The notes below the pieces were generated by a model. The model saw only the letters and a list, made by a program, of their open reading frames with translations. It made no database searches and was not told the DNA's origin. Shown here one piece after another: positions 70-27,619 of a stretch of 41,448 bases of DNA. A program made the translations under genes and the position numbers. Source of the stretch: Candidatus Eiseniibacteriota bacterium (GTDB lineage Bacteria > Eisenbacteria > RBG-16-71-46 > JABDJR01 > JAWXBZ01); NCBI GenBank assembly GCA_034440375.1, contig JAWXBZ010000085.1, positions 1-41,448 of the forward strand, written 5' to 3'. Position 1 is the stretch's first letter; each line of letters opens with the position of its first letter.

Positions 70-1694
70 TGATGCCTGCGGCACATCGTCGCTCACTCGT
101 CCGGGGCGGACGGCCGCTTCTGCTGGGGCTGGCTCTGGCACTGATGCTGCCCCCGGCCCTGGCCATCAGCCCCGCCTCCGCCGTCACGAAGCTCGAAGGC
201 GAGTACAACCTGCAGCTGGACATCCGCAAGCAGGACCGGAGTTTCGACTGGGACTTCGACTCGAACAACAACGATACGTATTCGCAGGCCCAGTTCCGCC
301 TGTTCACCCAGCCCAAGACGGGTGTCGAGGCGTTTCTTCGCTACGAGGCGGAGTGGAACACATCGGACAACAACAACGACCGGCCCATCTTCCTCTTCCG
401 CGAAGCGCATGGCCGCTACCGCTGGGAATTGAACGGGGCCAAGAAGGGTTTCGACACCTACCTCTTCGCCCGGCAGGACCGCTTCTGGGTGGACAACTAC
501 CTGATCCCGGTCGTCCGCAATGACGAAGGTCGCGACGGCGGTAATGCCCAGGGGATCCGCGTCGACTCCTGGGGCTTCCTCGGCGGCCTCAACGCCACGG
601 CCATCGTGTCGGACTTCAGCGGGCAGTACAATCCGAACGACGTGACCTGTCTCGATTGCACACCCGAGAAGCTGGAAGCCCGTCGCGAGGAGCGCCGGCG
701 GCAGACCGACGATGGATACGTGCTCCGGCTGCGCCGCACGTTCGATCAGAACCGGCTTCGGACGGGTTTCACCTACAACCGGCGCGTCGAGAATCAATCC
801 GGTGTCGAACAGGATTCGACGCGCTTCGCGGAAGTTCTGGCGGGTGATGTCCGGTACACATTCAAGGACATCGACTTTTCGATGGAGTACGCGCAAAGCC
901 GGACGCGCGGGCCCGAGCCGGGTGTCCAGTTCCGGGATGGTCTCGACCAGGAACTCCTCGGGGTGCGGATTCCCGATTCGGCCGTCATCCTCGGCGAGAT
1001 CCGAAGCCTGCGCCTTGGTAACGCGCGGCTCGGGTACCTGAACGTGGCTCCAACCGGCTGGTTTCGCGGCCCCACCTTCGACAATCGCATGGGCGAGTCC
1101 AACCGCGATGAACGGGGCTACGTCATCAACACCTGGTACCTCGTGCCGGCCCGCGCCATCACGCTGACCAACAACTGGCTCGAGTACCGCAAGAAGGCCA
1201 CGCTACGCCGCCACGTCACCGAGTTCTATTCCGAGGCCTACATCGAGTTCCTGCGTGGCTTTACCGGCAAGACCTACTACCGGCAGAAGCGAACCATCGA
1301 CGACGTCAGCGCCGTCCGCCAGCGCATCGAGAAGAACGACGATTTCGTCTTCTGGATCTCGGTCGAAAGCCAGCTGGCATGGTTCCGCCTGAGCGGCAAG
1401 ATAAAAAACATGGGCACGCCCTTTCAAAAGGAACTGGGCTCGATCGAGACGTCCATCAATCTCGGAGCAAAGACGAAGCTCTACACGCGGCTGGTAACCG
1501 GGGACGACCCGACCAGCCTTCGCCGTTCGCTCTTTACCCAGATCCAGTACCGCCCTTCCGGCAACATGGAACTCTTCCTGGAATACGGCCCCGGGTTCAT
1601 CGGAGATTCCCAGATTCCGGTGGACGACGGCGACCTTGAAGGTTCCGGCCGCCAGAAGGACATTATCAAGGTATTCCTGAGGGGGACGTTTTGA
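66..1694 (+). CDS. Putative outer-membrane beta-barrel protein
   Basis: Signal peptide, many alternating aromatic/hydrophobic strands, C-terminal KVFLRGTF ending in Phe (beta-signal-like); translationally coupled to neighbours. Confidence 0.65.
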   Translation: MMMPAAHRRSLVRGGRPLLLGLALALMLPPALAISPASAVTKLEGEYNLQLDIRKQDRSFDWDFDSNNNDTYSQAQFRLFTQPKTGVEAFLRYEAEWNTSDNNNDRPIFLFREAHGRYRWELNGAKKGFDTYLFARQDRFWVDNYLIPVVRNDEGRDGGNAQGIRVDSWGFLGGLNATAIVSDFSGQYNPNDVTCLDCTPEKLEARREERRRQTDDGYVLRLRRTFDQNRLRTGFTYNRRVENQSGVEQDSTRFAEVLAGDVRYTFKDIDFSMEYAQSRTRGPEPGVQFRDGLDQELLGVRIPDSAVILGEIRSLRLGNARLGYLNVAPTGWFRGPTFDNRMGESNRDERGYVINTWYLVPARAITLTNNWLEYRKKATLRRHVTEFYSEAYIEFLRGFTGKTYYRQKRTIDDVSAVRQRIEKNDDFVFWISVESQLAWFRLSGKIKNMGTPFQKELGSIETSINLGAKTKLYTRLVTGDDPTSLRRSLFTQIQYRPSGNMELFLEYGPGFIGDSQIPVDDGDLEGSGRQKDIIKVFLRGTF

Positions 1695-3802
1695 TGCCGT
1701 TGCGATTGCTGACCAGCCTCGTCCTTCTCCTTTTGGTCGTCTCCTCGGCCGGGCGCGCCCGGGCCGAAATTACGGGCGTCGAGGGCGGTGTTCAATTCAC
1801 GTACGACAACAGTGCGGCCTCGCAGGTGCACTGGGCCGGGGATTTCAATGGCTGGAGCACCACCGCCAATCCATTCACGAAGGACGGAGAGCTGTGGGTC
1901 ATTGTCCTCCCGCTGCCTCCCGGCGAGCACATGTACAAGCTCGTCGTCGATGGACAATGGGTGGCGGATCCGAACAATCCGGATACCAAGGGAGAGTTCG
2001 GCAACTCGCTGATCCGGGTCGGGGCGGACGGCAAGCCGCAGGCCGGATCGGCGGGGGCCTCCGGGATAACCTCCCTGAGCCCGAAGATCAAGCTGAACGG
2101 GCGCCTCATCTCGCGCTTCGAATCGATCGATGACCCAAACCAGGGCGGGCGATTCGAGCTGCGCCGTCCGGACTTCGACCTGGACCTCGATTTCAATATC
2201 CGCATGAGCGATGTCCTCGATGCCCGCGTGCTCACGAATATTCGGGCCGAGAACGAGGATGTTCCGTTCTGGCAATCCCGACTCAATTTCGATCGCGGTC
2301 ATCTCCATCTGCATTCGGACCGTATCGATCTCCTGGCGTTCGACAATGACCGCATCGACCCGTGGCCGGACCCGCTCCGGCTGGTCGGCAACGTCGGCAT
2401 CTACGACCATGATTTCGGCTACGACGAACAGGGCATGCTCGCCCGTAAGAAGCTCGCGGGATTCGACATGCAACTCCTGTACGCCGATAACTTCCGCACG
2501 GGGGGGACCGACCGTCCCGGGTCCGTTGCCGCGTCGGCGCCCATCTACGAGGGACAGCTCGCCCGGGCGCAGCCCCTGATCGCCGAGTACGACTTCAACG
2601 ACACGGACAACAACAAGGATGTGCTGGCGTACAGCGCCGGCCGAAAGCTGGGTCGACGGCTCGATATCGGAGTCGTCGCGCGCCTGGACCGTGGTTTCAA
2701 CCCCGGTTTTGCCCGGGTTCGTGAAGGGGGATACGACACGACCGGTTTCCGCCCGGCCCGCGTGGTCGAAGGCCCGACCCTGGAACGCTGGAGCGGCGCC
2801 GGCGGCCACGGAACCTGGTCAACGGGACCGTGGAAGCTGGGCGGCGAATACCTGTGGGGGCGCAATCACCTGGACTTCCAGAATGGTTCCACCCTGAATG
2901 AATTCCGCTACGTCGAATCCGACACGACCCGGAGGACGCTCGGCGGTTCGGGGGCCCGGGAATCCTTCACCATCGCCACCGACCAACGTGCCAACCTGTC
3001 AGCAGCCGGCCCGGCGGTGGGGCTGGACCTGAAATTCGGCTGGGAGCTGCACACGACGCGAGTGACACCCATCGGCAACGACAGTGCGCGGTATCTCGAT
3101 AACCGAATGACGGTCTGGTCGGGTCATGCCGGTCGAACGTTTCCCCTGTCGGGGGAACGAGCCGTCAAGGCCCGTCTGGGTCTCGAATTCGTCGACTTCG
3201 ACTACGACGCCGGAACGCCCTGGCGCAGCCAGTTCTGGTTCGACAGCCGTAACTTCTGGCTGGAGGCCGGTGAACACGAGGTCAAGGTTGATCGATTCAC
3301 CCTGCTGGGGGGCGACGACGTGGTCTCCTGGCAACCATCGGTGTCGATCGATATCCTGGCCGATCCGCCCCTGAATGTCCGGTACGCCGGCACCATCAAC
3401 TCAACGGGATTCGATCTCAAGCCGAAGTTCATCGAGACCCTGTTCCAGGCGACGCTTCAACTCTCATCCCGGACGCGCCTCTACTCGGATACGCGGTGGG
3501 CACGGTATGACGATCCGGTGCTTCAGATCGACGGGGGTTATCTTTCGACATTCCTGGAGCTTCAGTATCAATTTACCCCCGGTATCCAGTTTGCCCTGTC
3601 GTGGGGTGTCGATCCGTACGTCATCGACGAGCCGGTCAACGAATACGCCTACATCGGCCGGGACACCTACCTGTTCGATCGATTCGCGACGGGTGCCGCG
3701 GCCGCCAACAACTACTACAGTCTTTATACGTTCCTGCCCCTGGCCGAGCAGGAACTCGAGGACGAGCGCCGGATCCAGCTGGAGGCGATCGTCCGCTTCT
3801 AG
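1694..3802 (+). CDS. CBM48/AMPK-type glycogen-binding domain fused to a putative outer-membrane beta-barrel
   Basis: Signal peptide, then VHWAGDFNGW...LPPGEHMYKLVVDGQWVADPNNP (CBM48 signature); rest is beta-strand-like and ends LEAIVRF. ATG overlaps the upstream TGA. Confidence 0.75.
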   Translation: MPLRLLTSLVLLLLVVSSAGRARAEITGVEGGVQFTYDNSAASQVHWAGDFNGWSTTANPFTKDGELWVIVLPLPPGEHMYKLVVDGQWVADPNNPDTKGEFGNSLIRVGADGKPQAGSAGASGITSLSPKIKLNGRLISRFESIDDPNQGGRFELRRPDFDLDLDFNIRMSDVLDARVLTNIRAENEDVPFWQSRLNFDRGHLHLHSDRIDLLAFDNDRIDPWPDPLRLVGNVGIYDHDFGYDEQGMLARKKLAGFDMQLLYADNFRTGGTDRPGSVAASAPIYEGQLARAQPLIAEYDFNDTDNNKDVLAYSAGRKLGRRLDIGVVARLDRGFNPGFARVREGGYDTTGFRPARVVEGPTLERWSGAGGHGTWSTGPWKLGGEYLWGRNHLDFQNGSTLNEFRYVESDTTRRTLGGSGARESFTIATDQRANLSAAGPAVGLDLKFGWELHTTRVTPIGNDSARYLDNRMTVWSGHAGRTFPLSGERAVKARLGLEFVDFDYDAGTPWRSQFWFDSRNFWLEAGEHEVKVDRFTLLGGDDVVSWQPSVSIDILADPPLNVRYAGTINSTGFDLKPKFIETLFQATLQLSSRTRLYSDTRWARYDDPVLQIDGGYLSTFLELQYQFTPGIQFALSWGVDPYVIDEPVNEYAYIGRDTYLFDRFATGAAAANNYYSLYTFLPLAEQELEDERRIQLEAIVRF

Positions 3803-23339: not shown

Positions 23340-24086
23340 ATGGCAGCGCGGTCGAGCATCCCTCGTGGAGCCAGAGTGATCCAGCTCGGAATGATCCTGC
23401 TGGCGGCGTTCCTCGGGGTGATCCTCCTCTTCAATGTGGTCGTCATGCCGGCCTTCGTCCAGAAGGGAAACGAGCGAACGGTGCCGGACGTCAGCGGCCG
23501 GGATCTGACTACCGCCCGGGCGATGATCGCCAGTGCCGGCCTCCTCGCCGGCGAAACCCGCCAGCGCAACGATGCGCGCTCCGTCGGCACCGTCATCCGC
23601 CAGCAGCCTCCCGCCGGCCACTCCGTGAAGCAGGGGCGCCCCATCATCCTGACCGTGAGCCTGGGCGAGCCCGACCGCCAGGTGCCCACGCTGGCCGCCG
23701 AATCAATCCGAAACGCCGAGCTGGCCCTGGGCGATGTCGATCTGGTACTGGGCAATGTCACCACCGCCCCCGCCGACAACGTGCCGGCGGACCTGGTCGT
23801 GGCCAGTCAGCCAGCCGCCGGCACCAAGCTCAAGATGGGAAGCCCCGTGGATATCCTGGTATCCGGTGGATCCAGCAGCCGCAACACGGGCTACCGGATG
23901 CCGGACCTGCGTGGCCGCGAAACCCGCGATACCCGCGATCGGCTGCTCGACGCCGGCCTCCAGGTCAACGTGGATGAAAAGAGCTTCGGTTTTTTCCGGG
24001 TCGGCGAGACGCACATCACCGAACAGGAGCCACTCCCCGGAAGTCGCGTCATGCCCTGGGATACCATCTATCTAAAAGGGGAGTAG
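23340..24086 (+). CDS. Membrane-anchored PASTA domain protein (three repeats)
   Basis: N-terminal TM; VPDVSG...VIRQQPPAG, VPTL...VASQPAAG, MPDLRG...EQEPLPG. Confidence 0.88.
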   Translation: MAARSSIPRGARVIQLGMILLAAFLGVILLFNVVVMPAFVQKGNERTVPDVSGRDLTTARAMIASAGLLAGETRQRNDARSVGTVIRQQPPAGHSVKQGRPIILTVSLGEPDRQVPTLAAESIRNAELALGDVDLVLGNVTTAPADNVPADLVVASQPAAGTKLKMGSPVDILVSGGSSSRNTGYRMPDLRGRETRDTRDRLLDAGLQVNVDEKSFGFFRVGETHITEQEPLPGSRVMPWDTIYLKGE

Positions 24087-24092
24087 CCCCGG

Positions 24093-24815
24093 ATGACCGA
24101 CAAGATCCAGATAGCCCCCAGCATTCTCTCCGCCGATTTCACCCGCCTGGCAGAGGACATCCGCCTGATGGAAACCGCCGGCGCCGACCTGCTCCATCTG
24201 GATGTGATGGACGGCCACTTCGTCCCCAACATCACATTCGGCCCACTGGTAGTGGAAGCCATCAACCGGATGACCAACCTGTTCCTGGATGTTCACCTCA
24301 TGATCCAGGACCCGGCCCAGTACGCAGAAGCTTTCATCAGGGCCGGTGCCGACCGACTTATGGTCCATATCGAAGTCATGGATGACCCAAAACCCTTGCT
24401 GGACCAGATCCGCGCCCACGGATGCCAGGCCGGCCTGGTATTGAACCCCGAGACACCGTTCGAGGCCGTCGAGCCACACCTGGCCAACATCGATTGCCTG
24501 CTGGTAATGAGCGTCCACCCCGGCTTCGGCGGCCAAAAATTCAAACCCGAAGTACTGGACAAGGCGCGGCGAGCGAAAGCAATGCGAGAAATGAACGGAT
24601 GGGCCTGGCCCATCGAAATCGACGGCGGCATCGACGCCCAAACCGCCAAGCAAGCCGTCCAATCCGGTGTCCAGATCCTGGTAGCCGGCAACGCCATCTT
24701 CAAATCCAAAAATCCAACCGAAGCCCTGAAGCAAATAAGGGAATCCGCGGAACTAGCCGCCACCCAGACCAGTTCAACGCGAGCCGAAATCCGAACCGAC
24801 GAAGGCTTCCTGTAG
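24093..24815 (+). CDS. rpe: Ribulose-phosphate 3-epimerase
   Basis: IAPSILSADF, HLDVMDGHFVPNITFG, DVHLMI, MSVHPGFGGQKF, IEIDGG. Confidence 0.97.
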   Translation: MTDKIQIAPSILSADFTRLAEDIRLMETAGADLLHLDVMDGHFVPNITFGPLVVEAINRMTNLFLDVHLMIQDPAQYAEAFIRAGADRLMVHIEVMDDPKPLLDQIRAHGCQAGLVLNPETPFEAVEPHLANIDCLLVMSVHPGFGGQKFKPEVLDKARRAKAMREMNGWAWPIEIDGGIDAQTAKQAVQSGVQILVAGNAIFKSKNPTEALKQIRESAELAATQTSSTRAEIRTDEGFL

Positions 24816-24843
24816 GTCAGCCGCCACCCAAGGGATACCCGCC

Positions 24844-25452
24844 ATGCCAGCTCCGCCCAAACTCCGAGCCGCAATCCTCACCCTGGCCGCCACCGCCGCC
24901 GTAGCCCTGACCCTCCACTCCACCCCATCCGATTCCCAACAATACATTTACGCCAACGGCGACTCCCTGAACCCCCGCATCCAGTACGAAGACGGCACCA
25001 TCTCCCTCAACGACCGCTGCGCCGTCCGCATGACCAAACTGGCCAAACGCATGCGCCCCGTCTACGTAAACGGCCAACCCATAGGATTTTGTTGAGGCCC
25101 ATGCCCCGCGGCTTTCGGTGAAAGCCCCGAGACGTATCTGAAGGCGCGCGGGATCGCCATTCAGGATTACTTTGATCCAAAGAAACCGGCGGTGTTGGAG
25201 GCCGATCATCGATCGTTTGTGAACTATGAGGTGTACTTCTTTGCTGACGCCGCCGCCAAAGCGCGTTTCGACACAAATCCATTGCCGCATTGCCGCCTGG
25301 TGACGGATCCTATAATCAGGACTCGATTTCAGCCGATCAGTCTTAGCCCGAAGACGACCTATGACGGGCGGACTTATTACTTCCTGACGGCGGGGAATCT
25401 GGCGACATTTGCGGCGACGCCGGATAGTTTCGCGGTGCGGAAGGGGATGTAG
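24844..25452 (+). CDS. Probable secreted triple-YHS/TRASH-domain selenoprotein (202 aa, Sec at codon 84)
   Basis: ORFs 24844-25095 and 25192-25452 are in one frame with a single TGA (25093-25095) between them; read-through gives NGQPIGFC-U-GPCPAAF, matching the YHS F-C-[CS]-x-x-C motif; two more YHS-like repeats follow; SECIS-like hairpin downstream. Confidence 0.8.
25107..25129 (+). promoter_or_regulatory. Bacterial SECIS-like hairpin
   Basis: GGCTTTC-GGT-GAAAGCC (25110-25126), extendable by two more pairs across a C-C mismatch; G-initiated apical loop 21 nt after the UGA. Confidence 0.7.
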
Positions 25453-25504
25453 CAGGCAGCAATCTCCAACGAGCAAGATCAGTCGCAGGGGCCTGTCAGG
25501 CGCC

Positions 25505-25865
25505 TGCTCTGACCCCTATTTCGTGAGACACTCGGTGTCTGCAAGTGTCTGCTGTTCGCGCCGGAACTCGGCCGGGGATTTCATCCCGAGCGAGGAGTGC
25601 GGCGCGAACGTGTTGTAGTCCCTGATCCAACCGTCGATCTGTTCCAGGATCCGCCGTGCCGAGGACAGATCCCCGCCCGCCACGTAGTCCCGCTTGAACG
25701 TGTTGACGAACGCCTCGGCCATGCCATTGGACTCGGGGCTGGCCACCGGGATCGTGATCGGCGTCAGATGGTGCCGCTCAACCTCGATGACCGTCTCCAG
25801 CGACGTGTAGATCGATTCGTTGTCGGTCAACCACTCGACCGGGATCTCCGGCTTCCCGGTTCCGA
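25505..25865 (-). mobile_element. IS3-family (IS2-like) transposase remnant with right end
   Basis: PVEWLTDN...SPESNGMAEAFVNTFKRDY...YN...PHSSLGMKSP; end sequence TGCTCTGACCCCTATTTCGTGAGACA (25505-25530) starts TG and resembles IS2-group ends; 5' part missing. Confidence 0.85.
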
Positions 25866-26123
25866 GAAAAGGTGAAGCGGGCCCGCGCGATCCGCGACAT
25901 GAATGCGTGGCCCTGGCCCATTGAAATCGACGGCGGCATCGACGCCCAAACCGCTGCAGATGCGGTCGAATCCGGCGTACAAATCCTGGTGGCCGGCAAC
26001 GCAATTTTCAATCACAAGAATCCGACTCAAGCCCTGAAAAACCTCCGGGTTTCGGCAGAAATGTCCCGCTTAAAAACCGTCGCAATGCGATCCGAGACTC
26101 GGACTGACGAGGGCTTTTCGTAG
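25866..26123 (+). pseudogene. rpe: Diverged second copy of the rpe 3' end
   Basis: Encodes WPIEIDGGIDAQTA...SGVQILVAGNAIF...KNPT...RTDEGF as in rpe; 32 nt identical (24615-24646 = 25923-25954); both copies end GTAGGTCA. Confidence 0.9.
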
Positions 26124-26390
26124 GTCACGGGGAGCCAACGGATCCGTGCGTGTACTCGGGTTCGATCGTGCGCCCAGCACGATCACGGCGATGGCGTATC
26201 GTGAGAGGGTTTGCTGGAATGAGAGGCTGCGATCGACGGTGACAAAGATGTCAAATTTGTGCTCGGCTCGCCCGAGAAGTTCACCGTTCTTCAAACTAGC
26301 CCAACCTACCTCAGGGACGGTCTTGACGTCGTAGCCGACAATCAGGTCCGCGAGGCGCCGATCGACGCACTCGTCGAGAAGCACCTTCAC
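26070..26390 (-). CDS. DUF5615 PIN-like toxin (C-terminus possibly degenerate)
   Basis: MKVLLDECV...GW-x2-LKNGELL...FDIFVTVDR; coupled to DUF433; tail overlaps the rpe remnant. Confidence 0.8.
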   Translation of the reverse strand: MKVLLDECVDRRLADLIVGYDVKTVPEVGWASLKNGELLGRAEHKFDIFVTVDRSLSFQQTLSRYAIAVIVLGARSNPSTRTDPLAPRDLRKALVSPSLGSHCDGF

Positions 26391-26599
26391 GACGCTTTTG
26401 TGATCATCCGGGCCGTTGCTTCATCGAGGAAGGCTACGACTTGAGCCTTCTCGACGGTCGGGAATCCTGCCAGGAAATCGTCAATGGTCTCGCCGCCCTC
26501 GAGATAGTCGATCAGCGCTTGCACTGGAACACGTGTGCCAGCGAAGACGGGCGTTCCGCTCAGAATGTCTGGTGAGGACGTCACGATCAGGTTTGCCAT
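26387..26599 (-). CDS. DUF433 family antitoxin
   Basis: SPDILSGTPVFAGTRVPV...YLEGGETIDDFLAGFPTV. Confidence 0.9.
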   Translation of the reverse strand: MANLIVTSSPDILSGTPVFAGTRVPVQALIDYLEGGETIDDFLAGFPTVEKAQVVAFLDEATARMITKAS

Positions 26600-26605
26600 C
26601 GTATG

Positions 26606-26635
26606 ATCTTACGCTCCTTCGCATTCGGGGCTCAA
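26606..26635 (-). promoter_or_regulatory. Sigma70-type promoter, probably leaderless, for DUF433
   Basis: Minus strand TTGAGC-18 nt-TAAGAT-6 nt-ATG. Confidence 0.5.
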
Positions 26636-26677
26636 GGTGGCCAACTTTGAAAGATCAAGTTCATGAGAGGTCATATG

Positions 26678-27619
26678 CTACAGCCGCCGCGTCCCCGACT
26701 CCGTCACATGCCGGAACACCGCCTCGAGTGTGTCGTCCGGGGCCTGGAGGCGCCAGACGGCGGCGCCGGCCGCGGCGATGATGCCGGGGAGCTCGGGATA
26801 GAGCGTGTCAGGGCCGCTTGTCAGAAACGACAGCGAGTTGGGACCGGTGATGCGGACCTCGATCGTGTCGGCGCGCGCCACGAGTACCTGGGCCAGCGGT
26901 CTCGGGTCGCCGAGGAGGTCGAGGTGCACCCGATGCGGGTGGCGATCGCGCAATGACTTCAAGAGGTCGGCCAGATGGCCGAATCCCAGCAGGCGGCCAT
27001 GAGCCAGGACGGCGACGCGGTCCGTCAGTGTTTCGATCTCCGATAGCACATGCGATGTCAGCAGCACGGTGCGGCCTTCGGCGGCCAGCCGGCGAATCAA
27101 CTCGGTCAGGTCCCGCCGGCTCGGCGGATCCACGCCCAGGAACGGTTCGTCCAGCAGGACCAACGGGGAATCTCCTGAGAGCGCCCAGCCCAACTTCAAT
27201 CGTTGGCGCATGCCGCGGCTCCACGTACCGTACGCGCGGTGGCCGTCGGCGGTCAGCCCGGCTACCTGGAGGGCTTTGTCGGCGCGTTGGTTGACTTCTG
27301 TTCCGGTGGCACCCTGGGCGGTGGCTACCAGCCGCAGGTTGTCGCGGCCTGAGAGACCATCGTGAAAATTCTCGGTGGCAGGCACGAACGCAATCCGCGA
27401 ACGGATGTCGGCGGTGGTGAAGGGATTGCCGCCCAGGACGGTGGCGGTGCCTTCGCGCGGGCGCACCAGTCCGGTGAGGACGCGCATGAGCGTGGATTTG
27501 CCGCTGCCGTTCGGGCCCACCACTCCGGTGAGTCCGGGTTCGAGTTCCAGGCAGAGGTGCGACAGGCCGACCACCTCGCCGTAGAAGACGCTGACCTGAT
27601 CGAGTTTGGCGGCGGTCAT
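26678..27619 (-). CDS. ABC transporter ATP-binding protein
   Basis: GPNGSGKST, SRGMRQR, LLDEP, SH; start ATG 27619 overlapping the upstream stop. Confidence 0.92.
   Translation of the reverse strand: MTAAKLDQVSVFYGEVVGLSHLCLELEPGLTGVVGPNGSGKSTLMRVLTGLVRPREGTATVLGGNPFTTADIRSRIAFVPATENFHDGLSGRDNLRLVATAQGATGTEVNQRADKALQVAGLTADGHRAYGTWSRGMRQRLKLGWALSGDSPLVLLDEPFLGVDPPSRRDLTELIRRLAAEGRTVLLTSHVLSEIETLTDRVAVLAHGRLLGFGHLADLLKSLRDRHPHRVHLDLLGDPRPLAQVLVARADTIEVRITGPNSLSFLTSGPDTLYPELPGIIAAAGAAVWRLQAPDDTLEAVFRHVTESGTRRL

Follow-up and report, generated by a model that had tools for sequence, protein, structure and literature searches.

According to PMC4626032, YHS/TRASH sites bind metal through the pattern [D/C]-x2-C...C-x3-C, and two members are described there with their metals: L24e, which binds Cd through four cysteine (Cys) residues, and the adenylyl cyclase of M. 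phlei, whose activation by Cu is conferred by its YHS domain. A selenocysteine (Sec)-containing YHS protein is also on record, namely the 'YHS domain protein', which was discovered in the metagenome of the symbionts of Olavius algarvensis (Zhang & Gladyshev 2007, PMC1976440). It corresponds to the model NF041384 and appears in the reviews of 2022 and 2026 with the motif GxU (PMC9312934, PMC13188914). The model of the bacterial Sec insertion sequence (bSECIS) element given in PMC13188914 comprises a loop of 3-9 nt, an upper stem of 4-16 bp, a distance of 16-37 nt from the UGA codon, and a minimum free energy (MFE) of <= -7.5; within its first two positions the loop is expected to contain a G, with G or U after it. 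The present analysis concerns a 41,448-nt stretch of DNA (contig JAWXBZ010000085.1 of assembly GCA_034440375.1, Candidatus Eiseniibacteriota bacterium; the whole stretch is referred to as the window), in which the segment 24844-25452 of the plus strand appears to encode a further Sec-containing protein with YHS-like domains.

It is considered, with high confidence, that 24844-25452 is a single gene encoding an exported selenoprotein of 202 residues, in which UGA is read as Sec and for which a soft-metal site is the likeliest role. When the TGA is read through, translation gives 202 residues followed by a TAG stop (at 25450). The sole in-frame TGA is codon 84 (25093-25095), and it lies within the motif G-F-C-U-G-P-C (U denotes Sec). 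Under translation table 11, the same segment is called as two open reading frames (ORFs), 24844..25095 (83 aa) and 25192..25452 (86 aa, GTG start). An earlier reading made from the sequence alone (the original prediction) had held that one TGA at 25093 splits an otherwise open frame of 202 codons, that gene callers divide the gene in two, and that a G-F-C-U motif is followed by two Cys-less YHS-like stretches; each of these claims agrees with the read-through translation and the gene calls. The residue in homologues, the conservation of the hairpin, the Sec machinery of the genome, and the reads at the TGA had been named there as further checks. Five lines of evidence were obtained in this analysis: a Sec/Cys pair among homologues, covariation in the hairpin, the presence of the Sec machinery, purifying selection, and domain likeness. 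The features of the locus are as follows:

24830..24835 (+): AAGGGA, putative Shine-Dalgarno-like site 8 nt 5' of the ATG, read from the sequence
24844..25452 (+): whole selenoprotein gene, 202 codons plus TAG, from translation with TGA as U and alignment of full-length homologues
24844..24921 (+): signal-peptide-like N-terminus, approximately residues 1-26, basic and then hydrophobic
24973..25137 (+): N-terminal Cys/Sec YHS/TRASH-like unit, residues 44-98, from hhalign, the structure model, and invariant residues
25018-25020, 25090-25092, and 25102-25104 (+): codons of C59, C83, and C87 in the N-terminal unit
25093..25095 (+): Sec-UGA codon (codon 84), from comparison of TGA and Cys forms across homologous loci
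25110..25126 (+): hairpin of bSECIS type with the stem GGCUUU(C)/(G)AAAGCC and the loop C-GGU-G, from covariation, RNAalifold, and MFE
25210..25281 (+): middle Cys-less YHS-like unit, residues 123-146, from the structure model and the pattern V-N-Y-E-V-Y-F-F-A-D...F...P
25303..25431 (+): C-terminal Cys-less YHS domain, residues 154-196, from Pfam PF04945 and hhalign

DNA searches recovered 18 homologous loci from species-representative genomes and 54 from metagenomes. The motif region is covered by 49 of them, whereas 23 loci (L034-L039 and L078-L094) match the C-terminal YHS part only and were left out of the Sec/Cys count. At the Sec position, 42 of these 49 loci carry TGA, and the other 7 carry TGC or TGT. 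Several of these loci are near-duplicates, and one (L041) is an exact copy of window positions 23344-26949; when distinct forms were counted by local context, 32 TGA forms and 5 Cys forms were obtained, with two TGA forms (L062 and L072) standing outside this duplicate count. The TGA-form loci span several phyla and come from metagenome-assembled genomes named as Eisenbacteria, Latescibacteria, Planctomycetota, and Acidobacteriota. The family profile was also run against 206 genomes from the phylum of the window, of which 131 gave a match. Among 82 full-length matches in these genomes, exactly one in-frame TGA is present in 56 and none in 26 (leaving out the unpublished genome G072, the numbers are 81, 56, and 25). 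In all nine TGA-bearing loci fetched from this phylum search, including the window's own copy (L105), the TGA sits at the motif; three Cys-form loci fetched from the same search duplicate sequences already counted.

A search of 5.8 billion proteins returned eight relatives, of which three are full-length (P0002-P0004) and have Cys at the site (G-F-C-C-x-x-C), and five are short sequences of 115-138 aa that start directly after the motif. A set of 1.84 billion cluster representatives yielded 487 matching proteins with E <= 1e-10. Among the best 150 of these, 24 include the motif region, 62 begin at the Val of F-V-Q-D, which corresponds to a GUG in the hairpin loop, 16 begin at most nine residues before that Val, and 48 begin elsewhere. 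At least 78 of these best 150 are C-terminal pieces starting 2-12 codons past the TGA position. Public gene calls thus consist mostly of truncated halves of Sec forms. In a quick tree of 40 sequences, the distribution of Sec and Cys needs at least three changes, only one of which is forced by well-supported branches. A tandem pair of Cys-form copies, about 60 nt apart, was also seen in three genomes (G066, G067, and G070).

The hairpin downstream of the UGA is composed of a 5' arm at 25110-25116 (GGCUUUC), a loop at 25117-25119 (GGU), and a 3' arm at 25120-25126 (GAAAGCC). It begins 15 nt after the TGA, its loop starts 21 nt past the A of the UGA, and its conserved core amounts to 6 bp. The 7-bp stem, the GGU loop, and the distance of 21 nt had all been given correctly in the original prediction. 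In the 45 nt counted from the UGA, this hairpin is the MFE fold (-13.9 kcal/mol). In agreement with the bSECIS model, the window hairpin has a stem of 6-7 bp, a loop that can be read as GGU or CGGUG, a spacing of 20-21 nt, and the MFE of -13.9. An Rfam scan of 24800-25500 gave no match to a SECIS family, the sole hit being a sub-threshold sul1 on the minus strand.

Comparison with relatives provides the main support for this element. The 32 distinct TGA sequences can be aligned without gaps from the UGA onwards, and the helix occupies columns 18-23 and 29-34. Across this alignment, 99.5% of the helix cells are paired, and four of the six pairs show changes on both sides (26 cells), namely G-C/C-G/U-A, G-C/A-U, U-A/C-G, and C-G/U-A. 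The observed pairing and covariation score were reached by none of 500 shuffles, and pairing falls to 31-59% when the partner is slid by 1-3 columns. The same six pairs were predicted by RNAalifold from the alignment alone. Conservation of the hairpin among TGA homologues, which had been named as a check, was therefore found together with compensatory changes.

The sequence that forms the helix also encodes V-F-V-Q-D, and columns 19-21 and 31-33 are two codons that pair with each other. The codon pairs found across the family are GUC/GAC, ACC/GGU, GCC/GGC, and AUC/GAU, with GCU/AGC in the window and in L042, a locus that is among its nearest relatives. The stem of the window and L042 is GGCUUU/AAAGCC versus GGUCUU/AAGACC in most others, which amounts to two compensatory pair changes; these alter the peptide, so that A-F-G-E-S stands in place of V-F-V-Q-D, and the stem is retained. 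The stem of another close relative, G055 (a genome of the same family), is GGUUUU/AAAACC. Six Watson-Crick pairs are present in none of the seven Cys-form loci; three of these loci have one pair, and in the others there are mismatches or G-U pairs. Taken together, it is very probable from these sequence comparisons that the UGA at codon 84 is a genuine Sec codon served by a SECIS element.

The Sec machinery, which the original prediction had named as a check, was found in full in the source genome (264 contigs, 93.7% complete): selA (582.3 bits), selB (331.9 bits; 362.5 bits counting its neighbours in frame), selD (336.6 bits), and a tRNA-Sec with the anticodon TCA (68.6 bits). The selD gene is split over two contig ends of this assembly (G000), the N-terminal 89 positions of the model being on C66:7641-7898 and positions 58-310 on C122:58742-59509. 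Among the 206 genomes of the phylum, selA is present in 182; it was detected in 51 of the 55 genomes that carry the TGA form, and the four without it are 56-85% complete. As selA is nearly universal in the phylum, its presence cannot separate Sec forms from Cys forms. With regard to the genetic code, TGA is the stop of 3 of the 10 Pfam-supported neighbouring ORFs and the other 9 lack an internal TGA, so that TGA is not a sense codon in this code. The codons after the TGA are under purifying selection: in comparison with L042 (67% identical), dN/dS is 0.215/1.17 after the TGA (about 0.18) and 0.231/1.40 before it, and the downstream domains are conserved in 40 aligned sequences.

The decoding scheme proposed here is inferred from standard bacterial Sec decoding, and this includes the binding of SelB. 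The hairpin at 25110-25126 would bind SelB carrying Sec-tRNA(Sec) while the ribosome sits on the UGA at 25093-25095; Sec would then be inserted at residue 84, and translation would run on to the TAG at 25450.

Several observations weigh against the reading of 24844-25452 as a Sec-decoded gene for a soft-metal-binding protein. First, the expectation that homologues would have Cys or TGA at the site was upheld in the 49 loci (42 with TGA and 7 with Cys) and in P0002-P0004 (Cys), with a caveat from more distant proteins: among the 24 motif-bearing representatives, the residue is Cys in 20, Ser in 3, and Arg in 1, and it is thus not indispensable for the fold. The four exceptions are P0020, P0027, P0096, and P0022, and P0096 otherwise resembles the Sec forms of Planctomycetota type. 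Second, the folding energy of the 45-nt segment does not stand out from chance (z = -1.03; equalled or surpassed by 34 of 200 shuffles), and a longer stretch of 76 nt favours a different pairing (z = -0.42); because the energy is not beyond chance, the case for the hairpin rests on comparison with relatives, that is, on conservation and covariation. Third, part of the conservation of the hairpin is accounted for by the conserved peptide V-F-V-Q-D, as is indicated by one Cys form (L030) in which all six pairs can still form, two being G-U wobbles. Fourth, a formate dehydrogenase with an in-frame TGA was not found in the source genome, so no second selenoprotein is confirmed there. Finally, no recurrent metal-transport or metal-resistance neighbour was found in 12 loci examined, nor in the window.

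If the TGA were a true stop, the segment would contain two small genes or a fresh pseudogene, and the hairpin would be a by-product of the peptide sequence. The two ORFs called under table 11 and the folding energy, no better than that of shuffles, would fit such a situation; no RNA run was listed among the public runs that contain the locus. Nevertheless, 42 of the 49 loci, which come from several phyla, share the TGA at this codon, and in the remaining loci only Cys replaces it. Such a pattern would be difficult to explain in this way, and the same applies to the covariation of the hairpin and to purifying selection of equal strength on either side of the TGA. Moreover, there would be little point in a Cys-bearing half-domain that ends ahead of C87, its last ligand. 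A true stop is thus regarded as highly unlikely.

The composition of the locus has also to be weighed against the Sec reading, as the third codon positions switch abruptly and exactly at the TGA, from C 65%, G 11%, and T 6% to C 25%, G 41%, and T 25%. Between about 24000 and the TGA, the plus strand is strongly enriched in C and A, with a GC skew as low as -0.41, and it is near even thereafter. Such a switch might point to a sequencing error or an assembly chimera in which two strains were joined at the conserved motif. Two other observations would be in line with a chimera: contigs of run X4 end at 25067 and resume at 25106, so that the two halves are on separate contigs with depths of 2.8 and 8.34, and the sequence just downstream contains both a fragment of a transposase gene and a diverged copy of the 3' end of rpe. 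As the X4 contigs break around the TGA, this run is uninformative on the TGA itself, and the 94%-identical relative in run X7 extends only up to 24977. On the other hand, the TGA is bridged unchanged by contigs of run X1 (24617-25800) and run X5 (25026-25800), neither of which shows any difference from the window, and this answers the check on the reads; X1 may be the source sample and is for this reason not independent. The nearest relatives, L042 and G055, have the TGA and the hairpin and show a milder composition shift in the same direction, so the switch is tentatively read as a trait of the lineage rather than the mark of a chimera. Even in a chimera, two Sec-type genes would have been joined. 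With the bridging contigs and the milder shift in L042 and G055, a chimera at the TGA has been largely set aside as extremely improbable, and the reading of the UGA as Sec is retained.

At the protein level, the Sec-containing product is predicted to consist of three YHS-like units. The Pfam YHS model PF04945 matches it at 38.2 bits (gathering cut-off, 30.3), with the best stretch at residues 170-197, and matches 34 of 40 family members at E <= 0.01. C59, C83, the Cys or Sec at position 84, and C87 show no variation across the 40 aligned sequences and are carried by the first unit only. When a canonical YHS domain with the motif F-C-C-G-G-C (L038) was aligned with the C-terminal unit by hhalign, a probability of 93.8% was obtained and the motif fell on F-L-T-A-G-N, i.e., this unit holds L, T, and N where canonical YHS domains have Cys. 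The same L038 domain aligned with the N-terminal alignment (A4) at 87% and an E-value of 4e-6, which is moderate support, and placed U84 on the second Cys of the motif. The YHS-likeness of the middle unit comes from the structure model and the sequence pattern.

An AlphaFold2 model, built from the 40-sequence alignment with Sec entered as Cys, has a mean pLDDT of 88.9 and a pTM of 0.80 and shows three units, each composed of a beta-hairpin and a helix: strands 73-75 and 78-80 with helix 86-93, strands 123-126 and 129-132 with helix 136-144, and strands 170-173 and 176-179 with helix 183-191. The triple YHS architecture claimed in the original prediction is consistent with these three units and with the hhalign results for the N- and C-terminal ones. 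A sequence search of the PDB with the family profile gave only weak matches, to Cys-less YHS-like repeats of ciliary proteins.

Export, also part of the original prediction, fits the N-terminus, which consists of basic residues followed by a hydrophobic stretch in all 38 scorable distinct relatives; by a crude pattern, a lipobox-like motif is present in 19 of these 38. In the AlphaFold2 model, the N-terminus forms a helix (6-21) of low pLDDT. Judging from this conserved signal-peptide-like segment, the protein is quite probably exported. The signal peptide would take it out of the cytoplasm, and many of its relatives may be lipoproteins instead.

Only the first unit keeps the ligand set of TRASH/YHS domains, which would be formed by C59 and C83-x3-C87, with Sec84 adjoining C83. 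The corresponding pattern in the window protein is N56-D57-R58-C59 ... C83-U84-G-P-C87; the position three residues before C59 is N56, which is conserved in at least 90% of the sequences, and the next residue, D57, is not invariant. It is proposed that the cluster of C59, C83, U84, and C87 binds a soft metal ion, with Cu(I) as the leading candidate, and that, in the oxidising periplasm, the selenolate would raise the affinity or speed up exchange. The two Cys-less units would act as scaffold or partner-binding parts. By analogy with known YHS/TRASH domains, metal binding is somewhat favoured as the function, and copper as the particular metal bound is a tentative and rather doubtful assignment.

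In mammalian thioredoxin reductase, a vicinal Cys-Sec pair forms a redox centre. The C-U-x-x-C motif of the window protein might likewise be a redox centre rather than a metal site, either through the vicinal Cys-Sec pair or through a U-x-x-C selenenylsulfide; in that case, the protein might act in the periplasm as a thiol/selenol oxidoreductase, or it might carry sulfur or selenium. The U-G-P-C sequence is indeed a U-x-x-C motif, and redox motifs of this type are reported for the majority of uncharacterised selenoproteins, for which redox functions are considered probable (PMC13188914). In addition, thioredoxin-like or DsbA-like genes adjoin the gene in 2 of the 12 loci (L024 and L032); these neighbours are, however, not conserved across loci. 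The fold is YHS/TRASH-like and not thioredoxin-like, and C59, which is distant in sequence, is invariant in the manner of a third ligand. A redox role is therefore judged unlikely on balance, and it is the main rival of the soft-metal site; of the functions that we infer from the sequences, the best supported is a soft-metal site composed of three Cys residues and one Sec within an exported YHS/TRASH domain.

The gene lies downstream of tgt, def, fmt, rsmB, a PASTA-domain gene, and rpe, all on the same strand, and starts 28 nt past the stop codon of rpe, a gap short enough to make co-transcription with the upstream genes likely. No promoter-like or terminator-like sites were found in 24600-25700. 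In G055, the order is PASTA-rpe-[this gene in TGA form] followed by ffh; as the position after rpe is shared, it is old in this lineage. No gene neighbours common to 12 loci from other lineages were found.

The downstream side of the gene in the window is occupied by a fragment of a transposase gene (rve_3, minus strand), by a DUF5615 gene, and by genes of ABC transporters. A diverged direct repeat is also present: the final 262 nt of rpe (24558-24819) have a second copy of 72% identity 1.3 kb downstream, at 25866-26127, and the truncated rve_3 transposase (25516-26004, minus strand) lies between the selenoprotein gene and this second rpe copy. The repeat and the transposase together resemble a scar that a rearrangement or an insertion has left immediately 3' of the gene; G055 has ffh at the place occupied by them in the window. 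The DUF5615 gene (26070-26390, minus strand) and a small overlapping upstream ORF (26387-26599, minus strand) look like a toxin-antitoxin pair. In L042 (about 760-2250, plus strand), the gene next to the selenoprotein gene encodes at least five C-x-x-C-H haem-binding motifs and, on this basis, looks like a multihaem cytochrome c.

Many genomes of the phylum also contain stand-alone ORFs of about 120 aa that match only the two Cys-less YHS units (profile positions 86-195). One is found at 2684-3046 on the minus strand of L115, and there are about 65 further matches in phylum genomes, mostly in family f17; the one copy that was read has no signal peptide. The ORF in L115 adjoins an HTTM/vitamin-K-carboxylase-like gene and terB, whereas that in L116 does not.

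A family model that reads UGA as Sec would repair many database records that have been split by gene callers. The family would also add to the selenoprotein catalogue a case of Sec inside the TRASH/YHS ligand motif, and the exported Sec/Cys3 site, as predicted, could serve as a model for what selenium adds to metal binding. Given that selA is present in 182 of 206 genomes and the TGA form in 55, this family may be one reason why these uncultured bacteria keep the Sec machinery.

With regard to known systems, the SECIS element of E. coli fdhF and fdnG is a hairpin in the coding region just after the UGA. The window hairpin differs from it in having a helix of only 6-7 bp and no conserved lower stem. 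Its spacing and stem length are within the ranges of the bSECISearch consensus, and its loop shows the expected G followed by G or U.

The N-terminal unit resembles canonical YHS/TRASH domains, such as those of Cu-ATPase N-termini, M. phlei adenylyl cyclase, and L24e, in the arrangement C...C-x3-C, which comes after a beta-hairpin and has its final Cys where a helix begins. Canonical YHS domains have Ser or Cys at the position of Sec, as in F-C-S-A-G-C (L034) and F-C-C-G-G-C (L038). They are cytosolic modules of larger proteins, whereas the domain of the window protein is predicted to be exported and is followed by two Cys-less copies. At the position of the first ligand, three residues before C59, the window protein has Asn, and Asp is at -2. 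Sec is a further difference, and metal binding is a prediction for the window protein.

The 'CU' dyad in a presumed metal or organometal site is shared with several metal-related selenoproteins, namely SaoC, SaoL, HgcA, MbdU, and CopZ-like form 2 (Table 1 of PMC13188914). These proteins differ from the window protein in fold and are unrelated to it in sequence. When 40 family members were compared with NCBIfam at E-values up to 0.1, no model of a CU-dyad selenoprotein was returned, the hits being NF041384 and otherwise stray weak ones. Within Table 1 of the same review, which lists 119 selenoprotein families and subfamilies, NF041384 is the one YHS row, and no other YHS, PF04945, or TRASH row is present (PMC13188914). 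The main text of the BSepDB paper (PMC13326102) contains neither 'YHS' nor 'TRASH'; the family may appear under another name in its supplementary lists or in those of the primary discovery papers. A full-text search found no paper linking selenocysteine with the TRASH domain, and none of the papers that such a search found for YHS and selenoproteins describes an F-C-U-x-x-C motif.

The closest catalogued family is NF041384, and the caution of the original prediction that Sec-containing YHS proteins may already be known in other subfamilies was justified in this respect. Both are small YHS-type proteins with a single Sec, and in both cases the prediction came from a Sec/Cys pair together with a hairpin located 3' of the UGA; NF041384 also occurs in the window's phylum, where 14 of 206 genomes score over its cut-off. 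The window protein scores only 18.7 bits against the cut-off of 70 bits, and does so only on its Cys-less C-terminal unit; the best E-value among 40 family members is 4.9e-6. In the NF041384 members L097 and L100 of the same phylum, the Cys in the place of Sec follows the YHS core in P-x-Y-G-G-F-C or Y-E-G-W-C, and there is no C-x3-C, unlike in the window protein, where Sec lies inside F-C-U-x-x-C. By its sequence and Sec position, NF041384 is a different family from the window protein. The F-C-U-x-x-C YHS family is apparently uncatalogued; it belongs to a well-known kind, and its mechanism is not new. As a tentative proposal that falls short of probable, it may represent the recruitment of Sec into a TRASH/YHS metal site (Cys3 to Cys3Sec) in a periplasmic protein or lipoprotein common in soil and sediment bacteria of several phyla, which could act as a high-affinity trap or chaperone for Cu, Ag, Hg, or Cd or as a selenium carrier, and in which a 6-bp SECIS overlaps a GUG that is mistaken for a start codon.

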